A DNA stretch of 64,000 bases, taken from positions 18,089-82,088 of the forward strand of contig JBAZJW010000003.1 of assembly GCA_041651055.1 (NCBI GenBank), written 5' to 3'. How positions within the stretch are numbered: position 1 is the stretch's first letter; every line of letters begins with the position of its first letter. This document shows positions 5,615 through 63,945 of the stretch, piece by piece. Below the pieces are notes generated by a model. That model was not told the origin of the DNA and ran no database searches. It was given only the letters and a program-made list of their open reading frames with translations. The stretch is from Minisyncoccota bacterium (GTDB taxonomy: Bacteria > Patescibacteriota > Minisyncoccia > Phycocordibacterales > UBA5272). The translations under genes were made by a program, and so were the position numbers.

Positions 5615-7327
5615 ATGGTAGATGTAAAAGAGATTGGAGGAAGCGTATGGACCTCTATGGGGATACCTGATGAATTCTCAGTATACATAAATAAGAAGGA
5701 TTATACTGCTCATACTGTGTCATGGAGTCTGACAAAGAAACTAAATGAGATAACAACATTTAAGGCATCACTGCTTGGAATAGATGATGATGAGAAACTG
5801 GATGTGGCTAAAGGAGAAGACATCAACATACTATTCGATGACGGAATAATAATGCAGGGATCAATAGAAAGAGTAACCTATACAACAGATTATAAGACAG
5901 AAGTAGAAGGATATGGGGATGAAGGGAAGATGCTTAAGAAGATAATCCCCGTATGCTGCGAACTATACACTGATTATAAGACTGCAATATATCATATATG
6001 TTCCGAGAATGGGGATGGGATTGAACCATTTTATCTTACCCCTGCACCAAACATAGAAGACCTTGGAATAGTCATAGCTACAATAAAGTATAAGAGCAAA
6101 CTTGAAGCAATATCCGACCTTTGCAAGGTAACGGGGAGAGAATGGTGGGTTGAGACCGATTATGACACATGGATCAGCTACTTATACATGGCATACTTCA
6201 AAGGAAGCGAAGACTCAGTTATAACATTCACCGCAGATGGAACCGCTCCAAACTGCACTGTAATAAGCTACAAACAAGATATTGAGAACTTATGTAACTC
6301 AGTCTATTATACTGGAACAATAAATTCAGTTGAGACCACTGCAAGAATAACTGACTCTTATAGGGTTACTGGTTTGAATTGGGGGGACAAATACACTGGT
6401 CTAACAGTTGACAGCAACTTATATGAGGCAATGGATGATTCACAGACTATTATGAAGTGCAAGAAGAGCGCTAGAACAGCCAATGCAAGGTTTGAAGGTA
6501 GGTATGTAAGCATTGGAAGCGATGAAGTAGCCCTGGTGTCAAGCTTCATAGACATGGGAGACTACTACCAATATGAGATTGTAAGGGATGTGTTACCTGG
6601 TTACCCGGCATCAACCCACCCCATAAGAACAGAGGTGTGTCTTGCTGCAGGAGGTCCAGGAGCGGATGCTTATGTCATTGTATCCGGGAGTGATGAGGAC
6701 TTGGCTGCTTTACCTGCTGTCGGAGTGTTAAAGATAGGATCACAGGATTATATCATATCATCAACCACCACAACTGAAGAGGATGAGGAAGGAAATATGG
6801 TTGGATTGATAAAGATGGAGTCCAGAGGATACCTCGATGAATCCCTGTATACTGAATTACCTTTCAGTCCTGAGATAACCGGTCTACCATACAAACACAG
6901 TGAAGGATCCCTCATATTCTATTGGTATGATATGGCGGTGGCGATATATAACCCAACCCATCCATACAGTGGATCATCTGTAGCCCTTGATGGATTATCA
7001 GAGAAATGGTACTCAGATACTTCAATAGATACATTGGACGGATTGGATCAAGCAGCATATAGTAAGCTGAACACTGAGACAATGAAGACAATAACAATAG
7101 AAGTATGCGACCCATATGAGATATTCCCATTGATAAGGATCGGAGATGTAGTATCATTCAACGATTCAGAGACTACTTTAACAGGAGACTACAGGGTGTT
7201 AGGATATACTCTTGGAATGGATCAAGGACAAATATCTCTTAAATACACAATTAGTCAAAACTATGTGACATGTATTGATGACCTTGCAAAGACAACAAAA
7301 GATGTCAAGAACCTAACACTACATTAA
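5615..7327 (+). CDS. hypothetical virion-associated protein (570 aa)
   Basis: long ORF 20 nt downstream of and co-oriented with the adhesin gene; no motif recognised. Confidence 0.45.
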   Translation: MVDVKEIGGSVWTSMGIPDEFSVYINKKDYTAHTVSWSLTKKLNEITTFKASLLGIDDDEKLDVAKGEDINILFDDGIIMQGSIERVTYTTDYKTEVEGYGDEGKMLKKIIPVCCELYTDYKTAIYHICSENGDGIEPFYLTPAPNIEDLGIVIATIKYKSKLEAISDLCKVTGREWWVETDYDTWISYLYMAYFKGSEDSVITFTADGTAPNCTVISYKQDIENLCNSVYYTGTINSVETTARITDSYRVTGLNWGDKYTGLTVDSNLYEAMDDSQTIMKCKKSARTANARFEGRYVSIGSDEVALVSSFIDMGDYYQYEIVRDVLPGYPASTHPIRTEVCLAAGGPGADAYVIVSGSDEDLAALPAVGVLKIGSQDYIISSTTTTEEDEEGNMVGLIKMESRGYLDESLYTELPFSPEITGLPYKHSEGSLIFYWYDMAVAIYNPTHPYSGSSVALDGLSEKWYSDTSIDTLDGLDQAAYSKLNTETMKTITIEVCDPYEIFPLIRIGDVVSFNDSETTLTGDYRVLGYTLGMDQGQISLKYTISQNYVTCIDDLAKTTKDVKNLTLH

Positions 7328-7329
7328 CT

Positions 7330-7425
7330 TATTGCAGTAATATACAATAATACTTCAATAATACTGCAGTAATATATAATAACACCGCAGTATTATTCAA
7401 TACTACTGCAGTATTATTCAATAAG
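7330..7425. repeat. four direct copies of ~16-nt motif GCAGTAWTATWYAATA in intergenic spacer
   Basis: ttgcagtaatatacaataa / ctgcagtaatatataataa / cgcagtattattcaata / ctgcagtattattcaata at 7332-7350, 7364-7382, 7387-7402, 7408-7423; AT-rich, between two + strand genes. Confidence 0.55.
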
Positions 7426-7497
7426 TATAGTAGTATATATAGATGTTTGACTATTAAATAATAAATAAAATAATCAAATAAGATCAACACAAACAAA

Positions 7498-8808
7498 ATG
7501 ACAATAATGAAGAATGGAACAATAGTAGAAGATAGAAAACTAACACAAAAAGAAAGATTCGACCTACAACTACTTGAAAGCATAAGATCAATAAGTCCAA
7601 ACTGCATAGGAATAGCCAAAGGAACAAAGATAACAGAAGGAAAAGACACTGGGATGCCAGCATACAAGCTATTCGTAAAGAAGAAACTACCAATAGAAAA
7701 GATACCAACAGGAGAAATGCTTCCAAAAGTGCTTGGAACACAAGATGAAAGACTACCAACAGACGTACAAGAACTAGGAGAGATCTATATAACATCAATG
7801 CTCAAAACCAAAAGAAGCAATAAACAGAAGATAAAGAACATAATACAAAGAATACAAGGAATAAGCAGGACAGACAAGGCAAGACCCTTCAAGATGGGAA
7901 CCAGCGGAGGATGCTGGGACACCACCGCGTTAACCAATGGGATGACCTTCAAACACATAGAATCAGGGAAGAAGGTCATATTCACCAACGGACACGGATC
8001 AGGATGCGACCTAAGAGACGAGATGCCCCTATCAACAGAGAAAAGATACCTACAACCAGGACCAGTAGACGGAGGACAACAAGAAGGAAACGTAGTAGGG
8101 GAGAGACTAAACCTGGTAAGATACAAGGACGGGAAAGGATGGAATGACGGGATGACGGTCATGGTATCCTCGGAAGACTACCTGGATGAGGAGTTGTATG
8201 AATTAGGCAGGGTAGTTGGAGTTGATACGCTGGTGGTCGGGGATAAGGTATTCAAGTCAGGTAGGACGACAGGAAAGACCGAAGGAAACTGCACATCTCT
8301 CAACGCAACAATATCAGTAAACTATGGAAACTACTCCATAACACACCTTGGATGCATACTATTCACAGGGATGAGCGCAGGAGGAGACAGCGGATCAGTG
8401 ATAGTAAAGATCAGGGAAGGTAAGATATATGTGGTAGCCTACCTATTCGCAGGGAATGAATCAGTGACAGTAGCCCATGAAATACAGAACATGATGAGCA
8501 TATTCGGATTAGCCCTAACACAGACAGAAGAACCAAACGATCCAATGGAGAATACTTACACAATGAATGTGGAAATGGAAAAAGAAACAAATGAGACACC
8601 ACAAACATGGACAGTAAAAGGAGTCATAACAGATAAGACAACAAAACAACCAATAAACGGTGTCAATGTAAAGATAGGAGAGATAAACTGCAACACAGGA
8701 TTGGATGGATCATATGCGGTTAAAGGACTCATAAAAGGGACATATAATACGCTGTTCTCAATGAGCGGATACAAGCAGATAAACGGATCAATAGTTCTTG
8801 GAGGATAA
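7498..8808 (+). CDS. trypsin-like serine protease domain protein with C-terminal CarboxypepD_reg-like beta-sandwich
   Basis: MSAGGDSGSVIV resembles the chymotrypsin-family GDSGGP catalytic-serine motif; C-terminal TWTVKGVITDKTTKQPINGVNVKIGE...DGSYAV is a carboxypeptidase-regulatory-like fold signature. Confidence 0.45.
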   Translation: MTIMKNGTIVEDRKLTQKERFDLQLLESIRSISPNCIGIAKGTKITEGKDTGMPAYKLFVKKKLPIEKIPTGEMLPKVLGTQDERLPTDVQELGEIYITSMLKTKRSNKQKIKNIIQRIQGISRTDKARPFKMGTSGGCWDTTALTNGMTFKHIESGKKVIFTNGHGSGCDLRDEMPLSTEKRYLQPGPVDGGQQEGNVVGERLNLVRYKDGKGWNDGMTVMVSSEDYLDEELYELGRVVGVDTLVVGDKVFKSGRTTGKTEGNCTSLNATISVNYGNYSITHLGCILFTGMSAGGDSGSVIVKIREGKIYVVAYLFAGNESVTVAHEIQNMMSIFGLALTQTEEPNDPMENTYTMNVEMEKETNETPQTWTVKGVITDKTTKQPINGVNVKIGEINCNTGLDGSYAVKGLIKGTYNTLFSMSGYKQINGSIVLGG

Positions 8809-52344: not shown

Positions 52345-52767
52345 TCATTTTTGTTTGTTTAATTTGATTCTATTGATTTTTTCTTCTTGTAACTCTGCAA
52401 GTATTGTTTTAAGGTAATCTACCTCTGATTGTATTAGTGATATCATATATGAGTCAGTTGGGTCTATTGTTGTTTGTAGTTTTCTTTTTCCTTCTAAAAC
52501 GTATTTTGTGTGTATTTTGTCCCAAGGCGTATTTACACAATGTCCATCTCTTAAGCGTATTGGACAATATTCGCATTTAAAATTTACGAAGAATGTTAAG
52601 CATAAAGGGCATGTATCAGTGTAGATTTCAGGGGAGTATGGTTTTTTGGCATTTGGCTTTAAGTTGTCTTTGATCCAGTGAGAGATGCTTTGCTTGGTTG
52701 CCTCGATTGCTTTGTTAAGGTCTTGGTCTGTGTGTGTTGTTGTGTATTTGGTTGTACTGATTGTCAT
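52345..52767 (-). CDS. Cys-rich protein
   Basis: CPLCLTFF...CEYCPIRLRDGHC. Confidence 0.3.
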   Translation of the reverse strand: MTISTTKYTTTHTDQDLNKAIEATKQSISHWIKDNLKPNAKKPYSPEIYTDTCPLCLTFFVNFKCEYCPIRLRDGHCVNTPWDKIHTKYVLEGKRKLQTTIDPTDSYMISLIQSEVDYLKTILAELQEEKINRIKLNKQK

Positions 52768-52777
52768 TTTTATTTGT

Positions 52778-52972
52778 TTATTTTGATTCGTTTAAGAGTG
52801 ATCTTGCGTGTTGGATTATTTTGGTTGCGGATTGCTTGAGTATTCCTATTTCTTCAAAGTCAAGATATGTGGATTCTGAGACATCTTGGATTGAGTAGAT
52901 TCCTTGGGAGTTTAGGGCTTTCTCAAGTTTTGGTCCGATTCCTGCTATTTCTTTTAGGTCGTATTCGTCCAT
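52778..52972 (-). CDS. helix-hairpin-helix (HhH) DNA-binding mini-protein
   Basis: LKEIAGIGPKLEKAL is a classic HhH (h.G.G...a..h) motif. Confidence 0.45.
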   Translation of the reverse strand: MDEYDLKEIAGIGPKLEKALNSQGIYSIQDVSESTYLDFEEIGILKQSATKIIQHARSLLNESK

Positions 52973-53182
52973 TTTTGTTGTAACTTGATTTTATCTGGTT
53001 TTAAGATTAATTGTTTTTATAAAGGAATTGGCTTCGTGTTCGTAGTATATGAATTCGATTGATGATTCGATCAAGTAGTTTGATTAATTCATTCCATGTT
53101 TGTCGTAGTCGTAACAGGAGTGTCCATGTATGTCTAAATCTTGTTCATTCATTATAGTATTTTAAGTGTTTGTGTGAATTGA

Positions 53183-53602
53183 TTAGAGGGGTTTGTATGA
53201 GCAGATGGGGTAGCGTCTGTCTGCTTTGGAGGTGTATGGTTTGAGGTTGTAGATGCGGCTTGGGGGCCTGGGTTCAAGGGGGTTGCGGTTTAGGTCTTTT
53301 TTCTTGCGTTTTAGGTAGTCTATTGCGTCTTCTTTTTGTGTTGAGTGGAATTGTTTTAGGGTTTTGACTGTGGTGGGGGTTATGTGGAGTATTTGGTAGA
53401 CTAGTTGGTTTGGGCGTAGTAGTAGGGGGAGGATTTTTAGTGAGTCGTTTAGGCCTAGGCGGTAGTAGCCGTTGAATTCGCCTTTTTTATCGTATGTTTC
53501 GATCCAGTTGGTTGAATGCTGGATTTGCGTTGTAAGTGGTTCGATTAATGGTGTGGTCATTGGTTCCTTTATTGGTTCCTGCTCTTTAATCAGTGTTTCC
53601 AT
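53183..53602 (-). CDS. hypothetical protein
   Basis: ORF in array. Confidence 0.3.
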   Translation of the reverse strand: METLIKEQEPIKEPMTTPLIEPLTTQIQHSTNWIETYDKKGEFNGYYRLGLNDSLKILPLLLRPNQLVYQILHITPTTVKTLKQFHSTQKEDAIDYLKRKKKDLNRNPLEPRPPSRIYNLKPYTSKADRRYPICSYKPL

Positions 53603-53609
53603 GTTAGAT

Positions 53610-53807
53610 TTATCTTAATTTGCAGTACTCTTTGAATCTGGGTGTGTGTTTATGAAGTAGTGAATCATATTTGGAGTATTTATCAGATAATGGGTGTTCA
53701 TTGTCTCTTATTCCAACTAGGCGGTTATAGAGAGTCATGAAGTAATGTAAACTTGCCTCACTTAAAGCATTGTCGTATTCTTTTAGTTCTTGTTCAAATG
53801 TTTCCAT
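53610..53807 (-). CDS. hypothetical protein
   Basis: ORF in array. Confidence 0.3.
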   Translation of the reverse strand: METFEQELKEYDNALSEASLHYFMTLYNRLVGIRDNEHPLSDKYSKYDSLLHKHTPRFKEYCKLR

Positions 53808-53813
53808 GTTAGA

Positions 53814-54029
53814 TTAAGGCTTTGTAATTGTTGCTCTTATGGTGTATGTTGATTCGTCAAAGGTTCGTGTGTAGGTGTAGAGTTTCCATGTGCCTGGGAG
53901 GAAGCCAAGGCCTTTTAGGATTCTGTTGGCGGCTCCTTTGAGTGTTTTTAGATCTCTGATGAAGATTCCGTTGTCAGAACCCAGTCCTGCTAGTTGTCCG
54001 TTTATGTGCCTTTCAGCAAAGTAGTTCAT
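53814..54029 (-). CDS. hypothetical protein
   Basis: ORF in array. Confidence 0.3.
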   Translation of the reverse strand: MNYFAERHINGQLAGLGSDNGIFIRDLKTLKGAANRILKGLGFLPGTWKLYTYTRTFDESTYTIRATITKP

Positions 54030-54393
54030 GTTAGAGGTTATTGCTTAGGATATATCTTGTGTATCTCATCTCATCATCTAACTGTTCATATACTGAGTTC
54101 TTGAATTGGTTGTCTTTGCTTGGGATTCTGTCTAATAGGATTGTTAAGGCATTCATTATGGCTTCTTGATTCCTGAGTATCTGTTTGGGTGTTGGGTCCA
54201 TGTTATGGTTTAGATGGTGATGAGTTTATTTGATTGATTAAATCCTTGCAGCCTTTAAGGATTGTTGACTTCTGTAGTTCTGATAGTTCTTGTGAGTCAA
54301 TTGTTATTGTATTTTGTCCCTGGTATATGCAGGTTATTGTATTGTTTTTATTTGTGTATTTGCCAAAAGTAATTGGGTCCATGTTAGAGTTTA

Positions 54394-54711
54394 TTATTGA
54401 CTATTTTCTTGTAGTTTTTCAAGTATGGTGTCATCTGTGAAGGCTATCCGGGTTTTTAGGGCTTGGTCAGCTGGCGGGCCTGAGAAGATACGTTTGAAGG
54501 CGGATTCTTTAAGTACGACAAGGCGGCCTGTGTTGGGGTTTATTAGGAGGATGCCTTCAGTTAAGTATTTGGTTTGGCATTCTTCGCATACTTGGGGTAG
54601 GGTTGAGTCTTTAGGAGGGAGTTCGTATTTAGTGTTTTTTCGTGCTATGAGGATTACTTCCCTGTGGCATATCATACAGTCTTTTACCAGTGTTGTTTCT
54701 CCAAGTTTCAT
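54394..54711 (-). CDS. zinc-ribbon protein
   Basis: CMICHREV...CEECQ. Confidence 0.3.
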   Translation of the reverse strand: MKLGETTLVKDCMICHREVILIARKNTKYELPPKDSTLPQVCEECQTKYLTEGILLINPNTGRLVVLKESAFKRIFSGPPADQALKTRIAFTDDTILEKLQENSQ

Positions 54712-56351: not shown

Positions 56352-56929
56352 CCTTAAAGTCTGTTAAGTTGGATATATCTGAGAATTCCTTGGAGATTAT
56401 CTTTATGAATCTTCTTATCATTCAGAATTTTCTGAATTAATTTATTCTTATCTCCATGTCTTAGAAGTGTTATTAACACGTAGTCAGGGATGGATTCAAG
56501 ATTTATTTCCATGTTCATATCAGTTCCACTATGTAGAACATTAATTGAATCAGTTTCATTTTATTTTTTTAGAATCATTGATTAAACATTTTTTGCATGT
56601 AACTGCTTTTTTTGTTCTTGAAGCATTATTTATTTCGTTAAGACTAAGCCCACATGCTATTTTATTGTCTCCGATAATTAAGTGAATAAATTTGTTTTTC
56701 ATTTTGAGTATACTTTAGGAATCAAGTCTCTTACATTGGGTACAGTCCATTTTTGAGAAGAAAATGATTAACTCATTTTTGAGTTAATCAAATTATGTGC
56801 ATGTTTACTTCATACATCATCCATTCTGTGCCTGAGCATATCTGTATGTTGGCTATGTAAGCACAAGCATCCAAATATCTCTGAGCAAGTCGAGAGAATT
56901 CCATTGTTTAGTTCACCTTAAAACAGTTG

Positions 56930-57600
56930 CTTGGCGGCATAGTGATTGAACACACATGCCTTAACCAGCCCGTGCAGTCTTCCAATTAAGGCTTGACTGC
57001 ACGCTGTGGTATTTAGAAGCAGCACCATGTTTACTCCTTTCACCATATTGGCTTATGGATGCCAACAGCTTTCCCGTTGAATGCAGAACAGCTGAATAAG
57101 TCAGCCCGATTCAAAGGTTATACTATGTGGCAGTGCTGCCCGTATGCCTGCATTATTTAAATACTTGCCCGCTCTGCCTCCGACAGCCGACAGTCTAAAC
57201 TGTAGTAGTCATGCGTCCTCCCCGTTTTTGCTATTATCTCCAATCTTCCAAGGACCGAGTAGTTACTGACTACATCACCCGGTTAGTTCCTTGACCGTCA
57301 AGGAGAGCAATTCGTAAGAGCCGACGCTCAAGAGTATAGAGCCTCAAGTTTGTTTTTTGCGCTTTGCGACACGAGAGCCAGGCTAACAGCTCCCGTTTTT
57401 TTGCTCAATCTCATACAACCTCTGAGATTGTCGCACCGCTCCCGCTATATGGGAGATTCGGAGTCACTCTTATAGGATACAGGATAACAGGTCGCTGCCC
57501 GCATTTCCTCCTATGATAACCATTAGACGATTAGGATATAAGAGCGATTACGACCAATTTCCCAAACCAAAACCAGCACCCTGCGAATTCACAGAGCAAA
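56930..57600. other. GC-richer (~45-50%) segment with no ORF >=60 aa in any frame; candidate ncRNA or decayed foreign DNA
   Basis: composition contrast with flanks; several stem-capable GC tracts (e.g. GCACCGCTCCCGCTATATGGGAGATTCGGAG); weak RNase P-like 8-mers (GUAAGAGC) noted but not conclusive. Confidence 0.35.
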
Positions 57601-57792
57601 AAGATTAGAAGGGGTAGTTACACTATTTTTTCTCAGTCTGACCTTTGACTTTTTCTTATTCTGATCTTTGATTATTCTGACCTTTGGTAAAAATCGGACT
57701 CAAACATTAGAAGCATAAATACTTATACTCTCATAATTACACATTCCAAACAATTAATCTTAACATATACTTAATCAACCAAAAATACAAAC

Positions 57793-58180
57793 CACAATGC
57801 TCACCAACATAAGAACCCAAATTAAAACAAACCCAGCAGAACCCAATCTCATCTTTGATCCTATAACACTAATGACTCTACACTTATTATCAATAAACAA
57901 AACCAAATATTGCATCCATCAATCACAATGCTAACAAACATAGACCTACAAATCAAAACAAGCCTCACAACCTCAAACCACATCATTGATCCAATAACAT
58001 CAAAGACCCCACACCATCTCCAAATAGATAAACCCAAATACAATTACCACCCACAATGCTAACCAATATCGACTTACAGATCAAGACCGGACTAACAACC
58101 TCAGACTTCATAATAAAAGGAGCCACAGACTTCAAATACTGGGCCGAAACCCTATACGACTACACAATCAAACCATACCA
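57793..58180 (+). repeat. three diverged tandem ~130-bp copies of the terL 5' end (CACAATGCT.AC.AA.AT...)
   Basis: unit starts at 57793, 57924, 58052 (ATGs at 57797, 57928, 58056; not in frame with one another). Copies 1-2 encode MLTNIRTQIKTNPAEP.. and MLTNIDLQIKTSLTTS.. versus the real MLTNIDLQIKTGLTTS.. Confidence 0.65.
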
Positions 58181-59600
58181 CATCGAATGGGCCAACAACC
58201 TAACACAACAAACACGCTCCTCAACCATCGCAGCAAGAGGACTAGGCAAATCACTCATACTAGGAACCCTAATGCCCATCTGGCTAAGCTTCTACGACTA
58301 CACACCACAGACAACAAACCTAAAAGGAATAGTAATAGCAGCCCAAAACCTAAGCCAAAGCACTAAACTAATGATGAACATCCGAAACCACATCAACAAA
58401 ACAGAACTAACACAACTACTCATACCAAAAACAGGAGACTACACCTGGACCAAAAAAGAAATAAACACCACAACCGACTGGAAAATAAACGTACTACCAT
58501 ACAGCGACAACGCAAGAGGACCACACGTCCCATACCTCCTAATGGAAGAAGCAGGTCTATTCACCGACCTAGAAATATACACAGACGTATTCCTACCAAT
58601 GATCCAAAGAGCCAACGGCAACGCAATGTTATTAGGGACCCCAAAAACAGCATACGACCTGCTAGCAAGAAGCCAAATACCCGGAAGCGGATACCAGATA
58701 AGCAAATACCCCCTAATCAAAAACGGAGAATGCATCCTACCAGAAATATTCCCCCCAGAACGAATACAACAAATACGAAAAGACATCGGAGAACTAAGCT
58801 TCGCAAGAGAATACCTACTCGAAATAGTAGGAGAAGGACGAGCAATAAAAACACAACACATAATAGACAGCCTAGACCCAACAGAAACCTTCACCACACT
58901 AGGAACCGAAACAGGAGAATACTACATAGGAGCAGACCTAGCACTATCCCCCACAGGAGACTACACAGTACTAACAGTCATAGAACGCTACAATGGACGC
59001 TACCACATCCGCAAAATAGAAGAATACCGCGGCATGAGCTTCGACAACCAAATAAACACCATAGCCACCCTATACAAACAATACAACCCCGTCACCCTAC
59101 TAATAGACGAAAGCAACTTCGGAGGAATAGTAACCCAAAAACTACAAACACAATACAACATACCAGCCCAAAGCATCAAATTCCTCCCAACCACCCGCAA
59201 CACCATGCTCATAAGACTAATAAACACCTTCACATCAAACAAAATAACCATACCACGAAACCCCAACTGCCCCACCACCCTCACACTAACAGACCACCTA
59301 CTAGACCAAATAAGCAGCCTACACAGCGACAAAACACGCAGCGGCCAAGACACCTACAAAGCATCAACAAAACACGATGATTCTTTAATGTCCCTAGCAC
59401 TAGCCCTACACGCAGCAGGAGACACAGACAACTACCAAGAAACAGCCATACTAACAGCCAAACCACCAACAAACCAAACACAACAAAACAAGATAATACA
59501 AGACAACTACTATGAAACAATACAAAAAATGAGACAAAAACCAATAAAAGAAACCAAAGAATACGGATCAGCCTTCAACAAATGGCTACCACACAACTAA
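58056..59600 (+). CDS. terL: terminase large subunit
   Basis: Walker A AARGLGKSLILG, Walker B-like VPYLLMEEAG, C-terminal RNase H-like nuclease Asp motifs YYIGADLALSPTGDYTVLTVIE and LLIDESNFGG; strongly A/C-rich codon usage. Confidence 0.65.
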   Translation: MLTNIDLQIKTGLTTSDFIIKGATDFKYWAETLYDYTIKPYHIEWANNLTQQTRSSTIAARGLGKSLILGTLMPIWLSFYDYTPQTTNLKGIVIAAQNLSQSTKLMMNIRNHINKTELTQLLIPKTGDYTWTKKEINTTTDWKINVLPYSDNARGPHVPYLLMEEAGLFTDLEIYTDVFLPMIQRANGNAMLLGTPKTAYDLLARSQIPGSGYQISKYPLIKNGECILPEIFPPERIQQIRKDIGELSFAREYLLEIVGEGRAIKTQHIIDSLDPTETFTTLGTETGEYYIGADLALSPTGDYTVLTVIERYNGRYHIRKIEEYRGMSFDNQINTIATLYKQYNPVTLLIDESNFGGIVTQKLQTQYNIPAQSIKFLPTTRNTMLIRLINTFTSNKITIPRNPNCPTTLTLTDHLLDQISSLHSDKTRSGQDTYKASTKHDDSLMSLALALHAAGDTDNYQETAILTAKPPTNQTQQNKIIQDNYYETIQKMRQKPIKETKEYGSAFNKWLPHN

Positions 59601-60325
59601 AACACCAAACTAATCAAGCCACACAATCAACTGACACAATCAACTGACACAATCAACTGACACAACTAACAGAGACAACTAACAGAGACAAACAAACCAA
59701 AAAACCAACCAAGACAACACAAGTAAACAAAGACAACCAAACACACAACATACCAATATGAATAAGCAAAGACAACTAACACAACTAACAGAAACAACAC
59801 AACCAAACCACGCAACTAAGCAGACAAAGATAACTAAACCAAACAACAAACTAACACAACCAAAACAAGACAACTAAAACAAGACAACTAAACCAAGACA
59901 ATTAGATCATACAATAAAACCATACAACCAAACCAAGACAGATAAACTAAAAAAACTAACTAACTCAACTGTTAAGAATCAAAACAACTAACAGAGATAA
60001 CATAACCAAATCACACAATTAATCAAAATAACTAAACAACACAATTAGATCATACAACTAAACCATACAACTAACTAACACAACAAACCAAATAAAACAA
60101 ATCAAAAACAACCAAACACAAACCAATCAGAAAAATTTAATATAAATACTACAATACATATACAACTAATATATACCATACAAAACTAATTAATAAAAAA
60201 CCAAATAAACAAGCACTAAAACAAACAGATATCAAAACAAATAAATACAAAAACAAATAAAAACCAAATTAATAAAAAACAAGACTAAAAAACAACAATA
60301 ACATACAATCAATAAATATTACAAG
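59601..60325. repeat. ~720-bp almost pure A/C low-complexity spacer with short tandem repeats
   Basis: CACAATCAACTGA x3, CAACTAACAGAGACA x2, many CAA/ACA/CAAAC units; G and T nearly absent on + strand; no plausible ORF (the - strand 64-aa ORF is a composition artefact). Confidence 0.6.
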
Positions 60326-61744
60326 ATGACAACACCAAATCAAAAAACAAAAACCCAAAGAAGATCACAACCAATATCAACACACACACAAAACATACAA
60401 AACACCGGATTCCAAGGAATAATACCCACACTGCAAAAATTCATGTACGGAGAACAAAAAACAGACAACACCCCCGAACCGGAAATAGGAAACAAAGGAT
60501 ACAGCACCGGACTAACACTAAACAGGGCAAGCAAAGCAGACCTGGAAGCACTATACATAAGCGACCCAGTAATATTCAACGGAATAAACACCTACTACAA
60601 AACAATCCTCTCAAACCCCCCAACCCTGACAAACGGATCGGAAAAAGACCAAAAAAAACTAGACCAATTCAGCAAACAAATAAAACTACAAAGAAGCATA
60701 ATACCAAGCATAACCCAACACAGCCTCATATACGGAACCGCGTGGAATGAAAAAATCTACAACAAAGCCCCCAGAGGAAACATCCTACACAAAATACTCG
60801 GAATACCCACAAGAGACCCCAAACTAATGGACTTCCTAAGACACCAAAACACCAACTACATAAGATTCAACGAAGTAGGAGAACCGGAAGGATACTGCCA
60901 ATACATAGCTGACGGAATACACTACGAAGGAACCGACACCATAATAAACGGAACAAACAGCCTAAAAGCCATACCCTTCACCCCAAACAAAATAATGTGG
61001 ACCAACTACATAGCAGTAGGAGACACCTATGAAGGAATAGGCCTGGTCGAACCAATACTAAACAGCTCACTAGACAAAAACAACGCCCAAAAAGGATTCA
61101 GCGCATACATCTACCGACTAGGACACGGACTACTAGGCATCAAAGCAGGAAACGAAAGATTCATACCCTCAACCGACATGATACACAAAGCCATACAGAT
61201 CTTCAGCAACATAAACACCGAAACAGTAGTCTCCTACCCCTACTACCTACAACCCGAAATGATCGAACCCAAAAGAGGAATAGAACGACTAAGAGAACAA
61301 GTAGACTACTTCATAGACCAACAAATAGCCGGAATCGGTTTGCCAGCATGCTTAGTAACAGGCCAAGGAACTTCTATGAACCGCAGCATCCTGGACAAAA
61401 TGATGATGCTATTCTACCAAAGCCTCACCATGATCCAAAACAACATATCTATAAGCATAGAAGACAACCTATCCCAAGAACTAATGGACATATACGGACT
61501 AGACAACCCCCCAAGACTAGAATGGCCCGACATAAACATAGAAAGCATGGACAGCAAAGCAAACAGGCTAAGCACATACGCAAAAGCAGGCCTGCTAGGA
61601 GCCACCCCAATGCTGCAGACATACATACGACACTCAGAACACCTACCCCAAGAAGGAGACAACACGCCCAACACGCCAGACACCCAATCAAACGAAGACC
61701 AGGAGAACCACAAATCAAAGCTGGATTCAATCCTCGACTTCTAA
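60326..61744 (+). CDS. putative portal protein (472 aa)
   Basis: size and position immediately after terL in a co-oriented packaging block; no motif verified. Confidence 0.35.
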   Translation: MTTPNQKTKTQRRSQPISTHTQNIQNTGFQGIIPTLQKFMYGEQKTDNTPEPEIGNKGYSTGLTLNRASKADLEALYISDPVIFNGINTYYKTILSNPPTLTNGSEKDQKKLDQFSKQIKLQRSIIPSITQHSLIYGTAWNEKIYNKAPRGNILHKILGIPTRDPKLMDFLRHQNTNYIRFNEVGEPEGYCQYIADGIHYEGTDTIINGTNSLKAIPFTPNKIMWTNYIAVGDTYEGIGLVEPILNSSLDKNNAQKGFSAYIYRLGHGLLGIKAGNERFIPSTDMIHKAIQIFSNINTETVVSYPYYLQPEMIEPKRGIERLREQVDYFIDQQIAGIGLPACLVTGQGTSMNRSILDKMMMLFYQSLTMIQNNISISIEDNLSQELMDIYGLDNPPRLEWPDINIESMDSKANRLSTYAKAGLLGATPMLQTYIRHSEHLPQEGDNTPNTPDTQSNEDQENHKSKLDSILDF

Positions 61745-61758
61745 ACCACATAAAAAAG

Positions 61759-63945
61759 ATGCCAAACCCCCAAACTAACACCAAACCACCACATGAAAAC
61801 AATGAGAAAATAGCGGAGTTGGTTCACTCCAACTCCGAAATAGGCTCGTCAGGATCCTCACCAACATCTTCCCCCGATTCCTCCGTCTCGGAAGCATCCT
61901 CGACTACGGAACCTCGCTCAGACTCGGCTTCATATCCTTCCTCGTTACAGGGATTGGTTCACGCCAATCCCACGTTACCTACGGAGTCGGTCTCTAAGAC
62001 CTCCTCGACGTTACAATTACAAGATGAATCATCTGTGAATGTTACATCAGACGTTACATTACGAGAACAAATAGCCAATCAATCCCATACTCAATGGTCT
62101 AAATGGATGGAATATCTATTCAATGAATCAAATCAATTAGAAGATGGAACAGTAAGCATCCCACCAACTAAAGTAAGCAGATGGAAGAGACAAATAGTTA
62201 CAGATTACAAAGACTTAACTATAGAAGAGCAGAATAGTGACTTAAAAGAAGCAGATATCTACATACAAATCTTTAATTCATACTTACATAATTCCAAAGA
62301 GACCTTAGATAATGCAGAGTTAGTTCAATCCAACTCTGAAATGAATGAATCAAGTGAAAAACCACTGAATAAAGAAGAAAAGAACGCTCCGACCAACTGC
62401 GAACTAATGAAGCCATTCACCCCAATGCAGATGACAAACAAACAAATGAACATAGAAGACATCAATTACTACTTCAACGACAAATACTCAGAGAAATACA
62501 TGCTATTCAACCAAACAAACAAAGGAACACACATATTCCTACATAAAGGAAGCAGATGGAACGGTTCAACAGTAAAGATATACAACGACAACAAAGAAGA
62601 GATAACTGACAGATACCCAGACATAGTATACCAAGCACCTGAACTGACAGATTACTCCATAATAGTGGAAGGAATAATAGAAAACAATGGAACACTAGAC
62701 TCTGGAACTCTAAATGGAACACCAAAAGGAACAGTAAACTCTGGAACACAGAATGAAACACTAAATGAAACACTAAATGGAACACTACAACTATACGACA
62801 TACTATACTACGACCAACCGATGAACAGATCACAGCTGATAGAAAGACTAAGAGTATTATTCATGAATATAAAAGACACTGAAAACATAAAGAAGAACAG
62901 ACCAATACCTGAGAAAAACATCAAACACATGATCAAACTAGCTAAAAAGATGGGAACAGGCATAATAAGACACCTAGACTCAGCCTACCATATCAATGAA
63001 CATGGAAACGACAAAGGATTCCAACTCTCAGACACTTCTGCAGCCTCCTCCACTAACACTGATACAATATATAATAATATACATACAATAGGCAACAACA
63101 CTTCTACAATACTAAAAGAGATATCAGACAAATTACCACAAACATTCATATCAGAATTAAGCAAAGCAAAAGACAACTGGATACCATTCACACTATCAAA
63201 GCATTACAGAGGACACAAAGAAGGAAATAATATAATAATGAATAGCGTACACCAGGATCTAAGATTCAACATCCCCAATTCAACAAACGTACAAGCAATA
63301 ACGATACTAACACCAGGAAACAATGAAAATCAGGACCTACTAACAATAGGGGAAGCAGCTAGAAATGGAAAGATAAGATTCCTGGTAAAAGAACCAGAAC
63401 CAATACAAAGCACAAAACCAACATACTACCAAGAGAATAACCCAGGAGCCACAACAGTACCTGGATTCAGCATAGTAGTAGCAGAAGGCCAATACACGCT
63501 CCTGGAATCAACAGATACCAAGCTACATATCGAATTAAACTGCATAGAGTCCTCATCCAGTGAAGGAGAGCATACAGTAAGAAAAAACAAGGAAGTCATA
63601 GATAAAGCGCTGGAAGCAGGGATCAAAGTAGACGAAATAGACTGGAGTACTTTAAAAGACATATCAGGGGTGTGGAGCCTAAGCGAAGCGCATATGACAG
63701 ACACTACAATACTACTTATGAGGCTTCTAAACAGGGGAACAGCAAGATTACTTGAAAAAGTAGACAAAACATGGATGGAACAAGTCAAAAAAGGACACAT
63801 ACACAAGACCGGAGTAAACAAGGAAAAACTATACAAAATAGCCCTTATGAGCGAAGAAGGATACTACAGACCAGAGATAGCCAAAGAGATAGGAACAAAC
63901 AAGGACACAGTATACAGATGGCAGAAAGCATTAGGATACTACTAA
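61759..63945 (+). CDS. hypothetical head-morphogenesis/structural protein (728 aa) with C-terminal HTH-like motif
   Basis: in-frame ATG after portal stop (the track ORF's first 137 codons overlap portal in an H/P/R-rich alternate frame and are discounted); internal repeats ELVHSNSE / ELVQSNSE and NGTL/NETL runs; C-terminal RPEIAKEIGTNKDTVYRWQK. Confidence 0.35.
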   Translation: MPNPQTNTKPPHENNEKIAELVHSNSEIGSSGSSPTSSPDSSVSEASSTTEPRSDSASYPSSLQGLVHANPTLPTESVSKTSSTLQLQDESSVNVTSDVTLREQIANQSHTQWSKWMEYLFNESNQLEDGTVSIPPTKVSRWKRQIVTDYKDLTIEEQNSDLKEADIYIQIFNSYLHNSKETLDNAELVQSNSEMNESSEKPLNKEEKNAPTNCELMKPFTPMQMTNKQMNIEDINYYFNDKYSEKYMLFNQTNKGTHIFLHKGSRWNGSTVKIYNDNKEEITDRYPDIVYQAPELTDYSIIVEGIIENNGTLDSGTLNGTPKGTVNSGTQNETLNETLNGTLQLYDILYYDQPMNRSQLIERLRVLFMNIKDTENIKKNRPIPEKNIKHMIKLAKKMGTGIIRHLDSAYHINEHGNDKGFQLSDTSAASSTNTDTIYNNIHTIGNNTSTILKEISDKLPQTFISELSKAKDNWIPFTLSKHYRGHKEGNNIIMNSVHQDLRFNIPNSTNVQAITILTPGNNENQDLLTIGEAARNGKIRFLVKEPEPIQSTKPTYYQENNPGATTVPGFSIVVAEGQYTLLESTDTKLHIELNCIESSSSEGEHTVRKNKEVIDKALEAGIKVDEIDWSTLKDISGVWSLSEAHMTDTTILLMRLLNRGTARLLEKVDKTWMEQVKKGHIHKTGVNKEKLYKIALMSEEGYYRPEIAKEIGTNKDTVYRWQKALGYY

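Follow-up and report, generated by a model that had tools for sequence, protein, structure and literature searches.

Gene content and composition of the terL region

The window analyzed here is a 64,000-nucleotide stretch of contig JBAZJW010000003.1 in which the leftward genes stop near position 56900 and terL, encoding the large terminase subunit, is the first of the rightward late genes (Table 1). The two gene sets are separated by about 1.15 kb without a credible ORF. Immediately before terL, this interval contains additional copies of the gene's own start. The MLTN N-terminus encoded at the third of the resulting ATGs is conserved in a relative with 81% identity (P0002), in three others (P0003, P0005 and P0006) and in L026, a JGI metagenome contig that is the closest relative with DNA and whose TerL N-terminus is 87% identical at the amino acid level. 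On its contig, ERZ1426824, the terL gene encoding P0002 lies at 1931 with an upstream gap of 1068 nt. The pattern MLTN..L...TG....F is common to TerL homologues down to 39% identity and is also found in the relatives' DNA. This conservation identifies the third ATG as the start of terL, as the sequence-only reading had assumed in stating that only the third unit continues into the gene.

No separate small-terminase gene is recognizable near terL. The gene after the portal (61746-63945) encodes a 728-amino acid protein in which an ATP-dependent DNA ligase domain is weakly recognized and whose C-terminus contains a helix-turn-helix (HTH_23); there is also a Terminase_5-like match below the cutoff. 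An 865-amino acid ORF listed from 61348 is an out-of-frame extension, and the stop-poor A/C composition of the region permits such an ORF. We used a second independent assembly (L001) for comparison; it is identical to the window across 16 kb, with the sole exception of one 13-nt repeat unit at 59621-59633.

The composition of these genes is unusual. Third codon positions in terL are A 54%, C 40%, G 5% and T 2%, and the portal gene is similar (58056-61744), an extreme bias with a near-absence of G and T. Because the A/C bias tracks the coding strand on both DNA strands, including the − strand genes at 52345-54711, it acts at the level of mRNA or codons rather than replication. Between about 57.5 and 61.5 kb there is a strong C>G skew, and an excess of A over T (A>>T) persists through the late genes. 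On the − strand, five small genes lie in a run at 53183-54382, all with the start context (C/A)TAAC-ATG and mostly followed by GA; weak similarity of their starts (z~3.3-3.6 in three) suggests that they may be tandem paralogues. The 725-nt spacer between terL and the portal gene (59601-60325) is ORF-free, has a composition of A 59%, C 23%, G 4.8% and T 13%, and is made of nested tandem repeats with periods of 13, 14, 26 and 58. Its ACACAATCAACTG array differs by one unit (13 nt) between the two assemblies, and such variation in copy number shows that slippage is active in the A/C-rich spacers.

Table 1. Positions of the features at the 5′ end of terL and of the adjoining genes
Feature	Position	Strand	Description
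Three direct repeats TTCTGAYCTTTGA	57627..57688	+	Just upstream of the leader; separate from the duplication
Leader containing units 1-2	57695..58055	+	4.7% G, unstructured, without Shine-Dalgarno
Unit 1 (U1)	57793..57923	+	131 nt; start module 57793-57855 and 68-nt tail 57856-57923
uORF1, MLTNIRTQIKTNPAEPNLIFDPITLMTLHLLSINKTKYCIHQSQC	57797..57934	+	45 codons; stop TAA 57932-57934 overlaps the uORF2 ATG
Unit 2 (U2), chimeric pseudo-copy	57924..58051	+	128 nt; start module 57924-57986, tail 57987-58051
uORF2, MLTNIDLQIKTSLTTSNHIIDPITSKTPHHLQIDKPKYNYHPQC	57928..58062	+	44 codons; stop TAA 58060-58062 overlaps the terL ATG
Unit 3 (U3) start module, genuine terL start	58052..58114	+	ATG 58056, codons 1-20; unit taken as 58052-~58114/58179
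terL, large terminase subunit	58056..59600	+	514 aa; Pfam Terminase_6C 5.3e-11; PHROG 38 terminase large subunit 1.6e-25
Mu-type portal gene	60326-61744		Downstream of terL

The start of terL is present in three tandem units of mosaic similarity

Three head-to-tail units open with CACAATGCT at 57793, 57924 and 58052, giving spacings of 131 and 128 nt. The ORFs that begin in them have the N-termini MLTNIRTQIKT... in unit 1, MLTNIDLQIKT... in unit 2 and MLTNIDLQIKT... in unit 3, which is TerL itself. Because this strand is A/C-rich, we compared local alignment scores with those of 1000 dinucleotide-preserving shuffles. Similarity between the tandem copies lies far above composition-matched chance (z=12.6-14.8), confirming the three ~130-bp units of the sequence-only reading. 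Whole units 1 and 2 align with a score of 44 compared to 12.9±2.1 in the shuffles (z=14.8), and units 2 and 3 with a score of 36 compared to 11.3±2.0; in both cases, 0/1000 shuffles equaled the score. That reading named one outcome that would undo it, a similarity ending after the first ~20 nt. Instead, with those nucleotides removed, the similarity persists both between units 1 and 2 (z=12.3) and between units 2 and 3 (z=7.0).

While the description as three tandem units holds, the similarity among them is not uniform. Unit 2 resembles unit 3 from nt 21 to 63 (z=10.0) and not after nt 63 (z=-0.4), whereas units 1 and 2 remain similar beyond nt 63 across a 65-nt tail (z=7.8). Units 1 and 3 are marginally similar as whole units (z=2.2, 43/1000 shuffles equal) and unrelated beyond nt 20 (z=-1.0). 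The array is thus a mosaic. The resemblance of unit 2 to unit 3 is confined to nt 1-63, units 1 and 2 correspond along their entire length, and what units 1 and 3 have in common is limited to the vicinity of the ATG; unit 2 has a start module like that of unit 3 and a tail like that of unit 1. Overall, the copies are 67-78% identical and the start modules 52-75%.

A hidden Markov model built from units 1 and 2 alone recovered positions 1-61 of unit 3 (E=3.7e-4) and matched nothing else in the 64-kb window. No additional copies came up in the window when nhmmer was run with profiles of the unit, the start and the tail. TRF did not report the 130-nt period, as the copies are too diverged. Among the 28 genes of the contig, terL is the only one with an upstream copy of its own start (z=13.5).

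The array is derived and specific to this lineage

The sequence-only reading had suggested a comparison with relatives. In L026, 877 nt upstream of terL align with window positions 56931-57730, mostly at ~80% identity, and the alignment then runs into a single terL start. The window has roughly 300 extra nucleotides at this point, units 1 and 2 among them. An upstream copy of the terL start is absent in 7/7 relatives, namely L026 and six that are more distant. Since the array is missing from all of these and is unique among the 28 genes of the contig, it is a derived, lineage-specific state. The direction of change, a gain, would follow from parsimony; L026 is the one close relative with DNA, and tandem copies can be lost.

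Beyond these genomes, we found no close relative in IMG/VR, where a 15-mer scan returned chance matches only, or in GTDB genomes, and matches to TerL of isolated phages were all <25% identical. Two of the relatives have features of their own at this locus. In L002, a hairpin resembling an intrinsic terminator (GAGGGAA...TTCCCTC and a T run, 5890-5930) follows a G-poor stretch and precedes terL by ~70 nt. In L006, an intein with a LAGLIDADG domain interrupts TerL (6001-8616).

Upstream copies decay while the genuine start is conserved

We assigned changes in the first 60 coding nucleotides to branches using L026 as the outgroup. Unit 1 retains the L026 states CTC and CAAATTAAAACA, which are lost in unit 3, and is therefore the older copy. 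The start module of unit 2 has the derived states of unit 3 (ACA ACC TCA), joined to the tail of unit 1. This combination is the outcome expected of unequal crossing-over in a two-copy array; re-duplication of a tail-plus-start segment would yield the same mosaic.

The copies have since changed in different ways. On the unit 2 branch there are eight changes, 8/8 of them to A or C and distributed as 3/1/4 over codon positions 1/2/3. All five changes on the unit 3 branch are synonymous, with four at third positions and one at a silent first position of Leu. The upstream copies thus decay without coding constraint, and the functional copy is conserved. Consistent with this, unit 3 contains 16 G residues compared to 7 in unit 1 and 6 in unit 2, and the base composition of the pseudo-copies has come to resemble that of the G-poor leader (4.7% G). 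The decay of unit 1 is uneven: its first 33 coding nucleotides are identical to the L026 terL start at 25/33 positions (76%), while nt 34-60 match at 10/27 (37%), which is close to chance (Fisher p=0.004).

The origin of the tail is less apparent than that of the start module. Similarity between the tail module and the leader is not significant, and the tail of unit 2, though not that of unit 1, has a marginal similarity to terL from codon 21 onward (p=0.02-0.05, with a 4-nt deletion). Taken together, the absence of the array from L026 and the six other relatives, the mosaic and the decay toward A and C support the suggestion of the sequence-only reading that the region is a remnant of repeated slippage or recombination. 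We dropped template and variable repeats of a diversity-generating retroelement (DGR) as an explanation, given that there is no reverse transcriptase and the differences are not adenine-specific. Phase-variation cassettes were dropped for want of inverted repeats.

Two upstream ORFs lead into terL

Units 1 and 2 do not terminate quickly, as had been proposed. Each carries an ORF that spans the whole unit and ends within the next start, with stop/start overlaps of the form ATGCTAA at 57928-57934 and 58056-58062. The first two ORFs do lie in mutually different frames, as the sequence-only reading stated; each of the two units has a length of 2 mod 3, which puts all three ATGs in different frames. 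Frameshift-extended TerL isoforms were dropped since the frames do not connect.

The non-ATG frames of the units contain 2-5 stops each. In composition-matched shuffles, the uORF1 frame stays open with P=0.09 (its other two frames have 5 and 2 stops) and the uORF2 frame with P=0.19; given the homology of the tails, the two values are not independent. The uORF1 and uORF2 peptides are 57% identical, their codons differ evenly at the three positions (15/13/17), and pN/pS is about 0.5 compared to 0.62-0.73 in control frames. Protein searches found no homologues of the uORF peptides, and the TerL N-terminus as a query likewise returned nothing.

A Shine-Dalgarno-like motif precedes only about 3/28 genes, and upstream regions are A-rich and G-poor (48458-69315 equivalent in L001), which implies Shine-Dalgarno-independent initiation in the host. 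The only ATGs in the leader are at 57797, 57872 (in frame within uORF1) and 57928, and the start context CACAAUGCU is the same at the pseudo-starts and at terL. Over 421 nt, the leader folds with a minimum free energy of -14.8 kcal/mol and is no more stable than shuffled sequence (z=+0.49). Re-initiation without a Shine-Dalgarno sequence at starts that overlap or adjoin a stop is established in E. coli and for f1/M13 gene V-VII (PMC2268962). With no Shine-Dalgarno sites and an unstructured leader, both uORFs are probably translated and coupled to terL. The earlier idea that the pseudo-starts are decoy initiation sites is mechanistically plausible, judging by their shared start context and by a genome that does not use Shine-Dalgarno sequences. 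A scan for sigma-70 promoters and terminators showed no enrichment at the array; the tail of unit 1 has one promoter-like site, which is not conserved in unit 2. The portal gene starts behind its 725-nt A/C spacer, which is untranslated and has no coupled uORF.

Conserved elements upstream of the array

Several elements between the divergent operons are separate from the duplication. The three direct repeats that precede the leader have a counterpart at a conserved position in L026, where CTGACCTTT occurs twice (~785-835). These repeats may be protein-binding sites, either a late promoter or activator site of the rightward operon or a better pac candidate than the array.

Farther upstream, positions 56931-57625 (1-775 in L026) form an ORF-free element of ~700 nt that is ~80% conserved. 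Its alignment contains 28 pairs (− strand) or 21 pairs (+ strand) in which both sides have changed in a compensatory manner, compared to 0-2 in slid controls. Although it has no Rfam match, its single-sequence fold has z=-2.7 on both strands; the − strand is slightly favored, with more G-U pairs and a lower energy. We consider this element a candidate for a large structured noncoding RNA or leader. A motif, (G/A)AATTCACA(G/A), occurs upstream of terL at 57586 in the window, at ~739 in L026, at 5216 and 5640 in L002 and at 5274 in L006. It thus lies in the noncoding region of four phages with the divergent-operon layout, whereas nine others lack it upstream of terL.

Discussion

The array at the start of terL was probably left behind by two tandem duplications of the gene's 5′ end in this lineage. 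It is most likely tolerated rather than selected, an ordinary relic and not a packaging signal. A segment of ~130 bp, containing ~20 nt of leader, the ATG, the first 20 codons and a tail of ~45-65 nt, would have been duplicated once to produce unit 1. A second event would then have produced the chimeric unit 2, either because the pseudo-copy and the real start underwent unequal crossing-over or because the tail plus the start was duplicated again; under the former, the history would be one duplication followed by unequal crossing-over in place of two successive duplications. Only the downstream copy would stay joined to terL and under purifying selection, with the upstream copies drifting toward the A/C-rich, G-poor composition of this phage's leaders. 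As a by-product, each copy still forms an ORF of 44-45 codons that opens with an ATG and runs to a TAA overlapping the following ATG (AUGCUAA). Ribosomes would be expected to initiate at the pseudo-starts, to stop 1 nt beyond the following AUG and, in part, to begin again there. Since such partial re-initiation would leave terL translation unblocked, the duplication would be tolerable.

The sequence-only reading also offered a packaging (pac/cos) or regulatory structure at this site. The three repeats would then be recognized by the packaging machinery or by a DNA-binding regulator where the packaging operon begins. Terminase-binding regions, such as lambda cosB and SPP1 pacL/pacR, typically contain direct repeats, and the array shares this property. 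It also has a suitable position, at the terL start with no recognizable small-terminase gene upstream, and the second gene downstream encodes a protein with an HTH at its C-terminus. However, L026 lacks units 1 and 2 even though its TerL N-terminus is 87% identical and the rest of the upstream region is common to both, and the copies, at 67-78% identity, keep only the start-codon context well. The CTGACCTTT repeats present upstream in both the window and L026 are a better conserved candidate for a binding site. Because the array is absent in L026, its core is start context, its transcript is unstructured and it has no Rfam match, the proposed pac/cos or regulatory structure finds no support, and we consider it very unlikely. 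A structured RNA leader, such as an attenuator or a riboswitch-like element, is extremely improbable, and so is an assembly artefact. In favor of the RNA there is one weak point, a small imperfect palindrome (TTGATCC.ATAACATCAA) that opens each tail. Against it stand the folding energy, which is that of shuffled sequence, and the lack of any Rfam match at E<=1; a tRNA scan was also empty. An artefact is rejected because the two assemblies agree base for base across the units and copies that are only 67-78% identical cannot come from repeat mis-assembly. The Rfam scan, the folding and the agreement of the assemblies effectively refute both.

Selection for the pseudo-starts themselves is more probable than these, but we regard it as unlikely. 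Here, the pseudo-starts would be kept as a chain of stop-start-coupled uORFs (AUGCUAA) that sets TerL output. Such a chain could act as a ribosome relay to a start without a Shine-Dalgarno sequence, could damp TerL relative to portal and capsid, or could provide ribosome cover against Rho loading on the C-rich, G-poor leader. Several observations fit: the pseudo-starts carry the terL start context, the uORFs are open over the full unit with both stops overlapping the next AUG, and unit 1 is best preserved over its 5′ 33 nt. Additionally, with no Shine-Dalgarno sites and an unstructured leader, any AUG is a likely start, and re-initiation of the required kind is documented (PMC2268962). Open frames and the conserved 5′ end of unit 1 are weak hints of constraint that a purely neutral relic does not predict, although a homologous open tail and local rearrangement provide neutral alternatives. 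Arguing against selection, the array is missing from L026 and six other relatives, and the portal gene starts behind a 725-nt untranslated spacer, which shows that initiation in this genome does not require a relay. The peptides, with differences of 15/13/17 and pN/pS of about 0.5, give no sign of purifying selection. ATGCTAA is the commonest form of the conserved Met-Leu(CTA)-Thr start, and ATGCTAAC is found in L002 and L004 too; the openness of the frames has a joint p of only ~0.02-0.09. On balance, it is unlikely that the uORF chain is functionally maintained. The specific version in which duplication of the terL initiation region gave rise to two AUGCUAA-coupled mini-cistrons that were then selected as a ribosome relay is likewise unlikely. 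If correct, it would load ribosomes on the Shine-Dalgarno-less terL and keep the rut-like C-rich, G-poor leader translated, tuning terminase dosage in a phage whose host is Shine-Dalgarno-independent and possibly belongs to the CPR. More broadly, a functional chain would illustrate translational control without Shine-Dalgarno sequences.

As a relic, the array is a worked example of how a duplicated initiation region creates uORFs, with the copies decaying under A/C pressure and the real start kept. Recognizing it as such also disposes of a pac/cos annotation that is tempting but lacks support. Its surroundings, with the covarying ~700-nt element, the A/C-only spacers and the third-position bias, are arguably more interesting than the triplication itself.

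Relation to known systems

Tandem duplications by slippage or unequal crossing-over are the closest parallels; the state is likewise derived here, and the middle copy is chimeric as that process would lead one to expect. Amplifications of the terminase region in phage T4, known as Hp17, were reportedly selected to raise gp17 output. They resemble the present array in placing head-to-tail copies at the terminase locus, but here only the first ~20 codons and the leader are copied rather than the whole gene, and the copies are old and diverged (52-75% in the start module), with no evident selective driver. The lambda cosB R sites and SPP1 pacL/pacR are also direct repeats that head packaging genes. 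Unlike those short conserved boxes, the units at terL are diverged, 130 nt long and centered on a start codon, and the array is missing in the close relative L026.

The leader itself recalls the TMV omega leader, which is G-poor, CA-rich and unstructured, works without a Shine-Dalgarno sequence and is active in E. coli too. The terL leader, at 4.7% G, is similarly A/C-rich, virtually structureless and without a Shine-Dalgarno sequence, although these features are common to every leader and spacer near terL in this phage and do not belong to the triplication as such. Coupled phage cistrons offer a parallel for the predicted translation of the array. In contrast to f1/M13 gene V-VII and MS2 coat/lysis (PMC2268962), the upstream cistrons here are nonconserved pseudo-copies of the terL start, and they would be coupled to it judging from the sequence. 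They nevertheless share with those pairs a phage late-gene context, the lack of a Shine-Dalgarno sequence and a stop that falls 1 nt past the downstream AUG.
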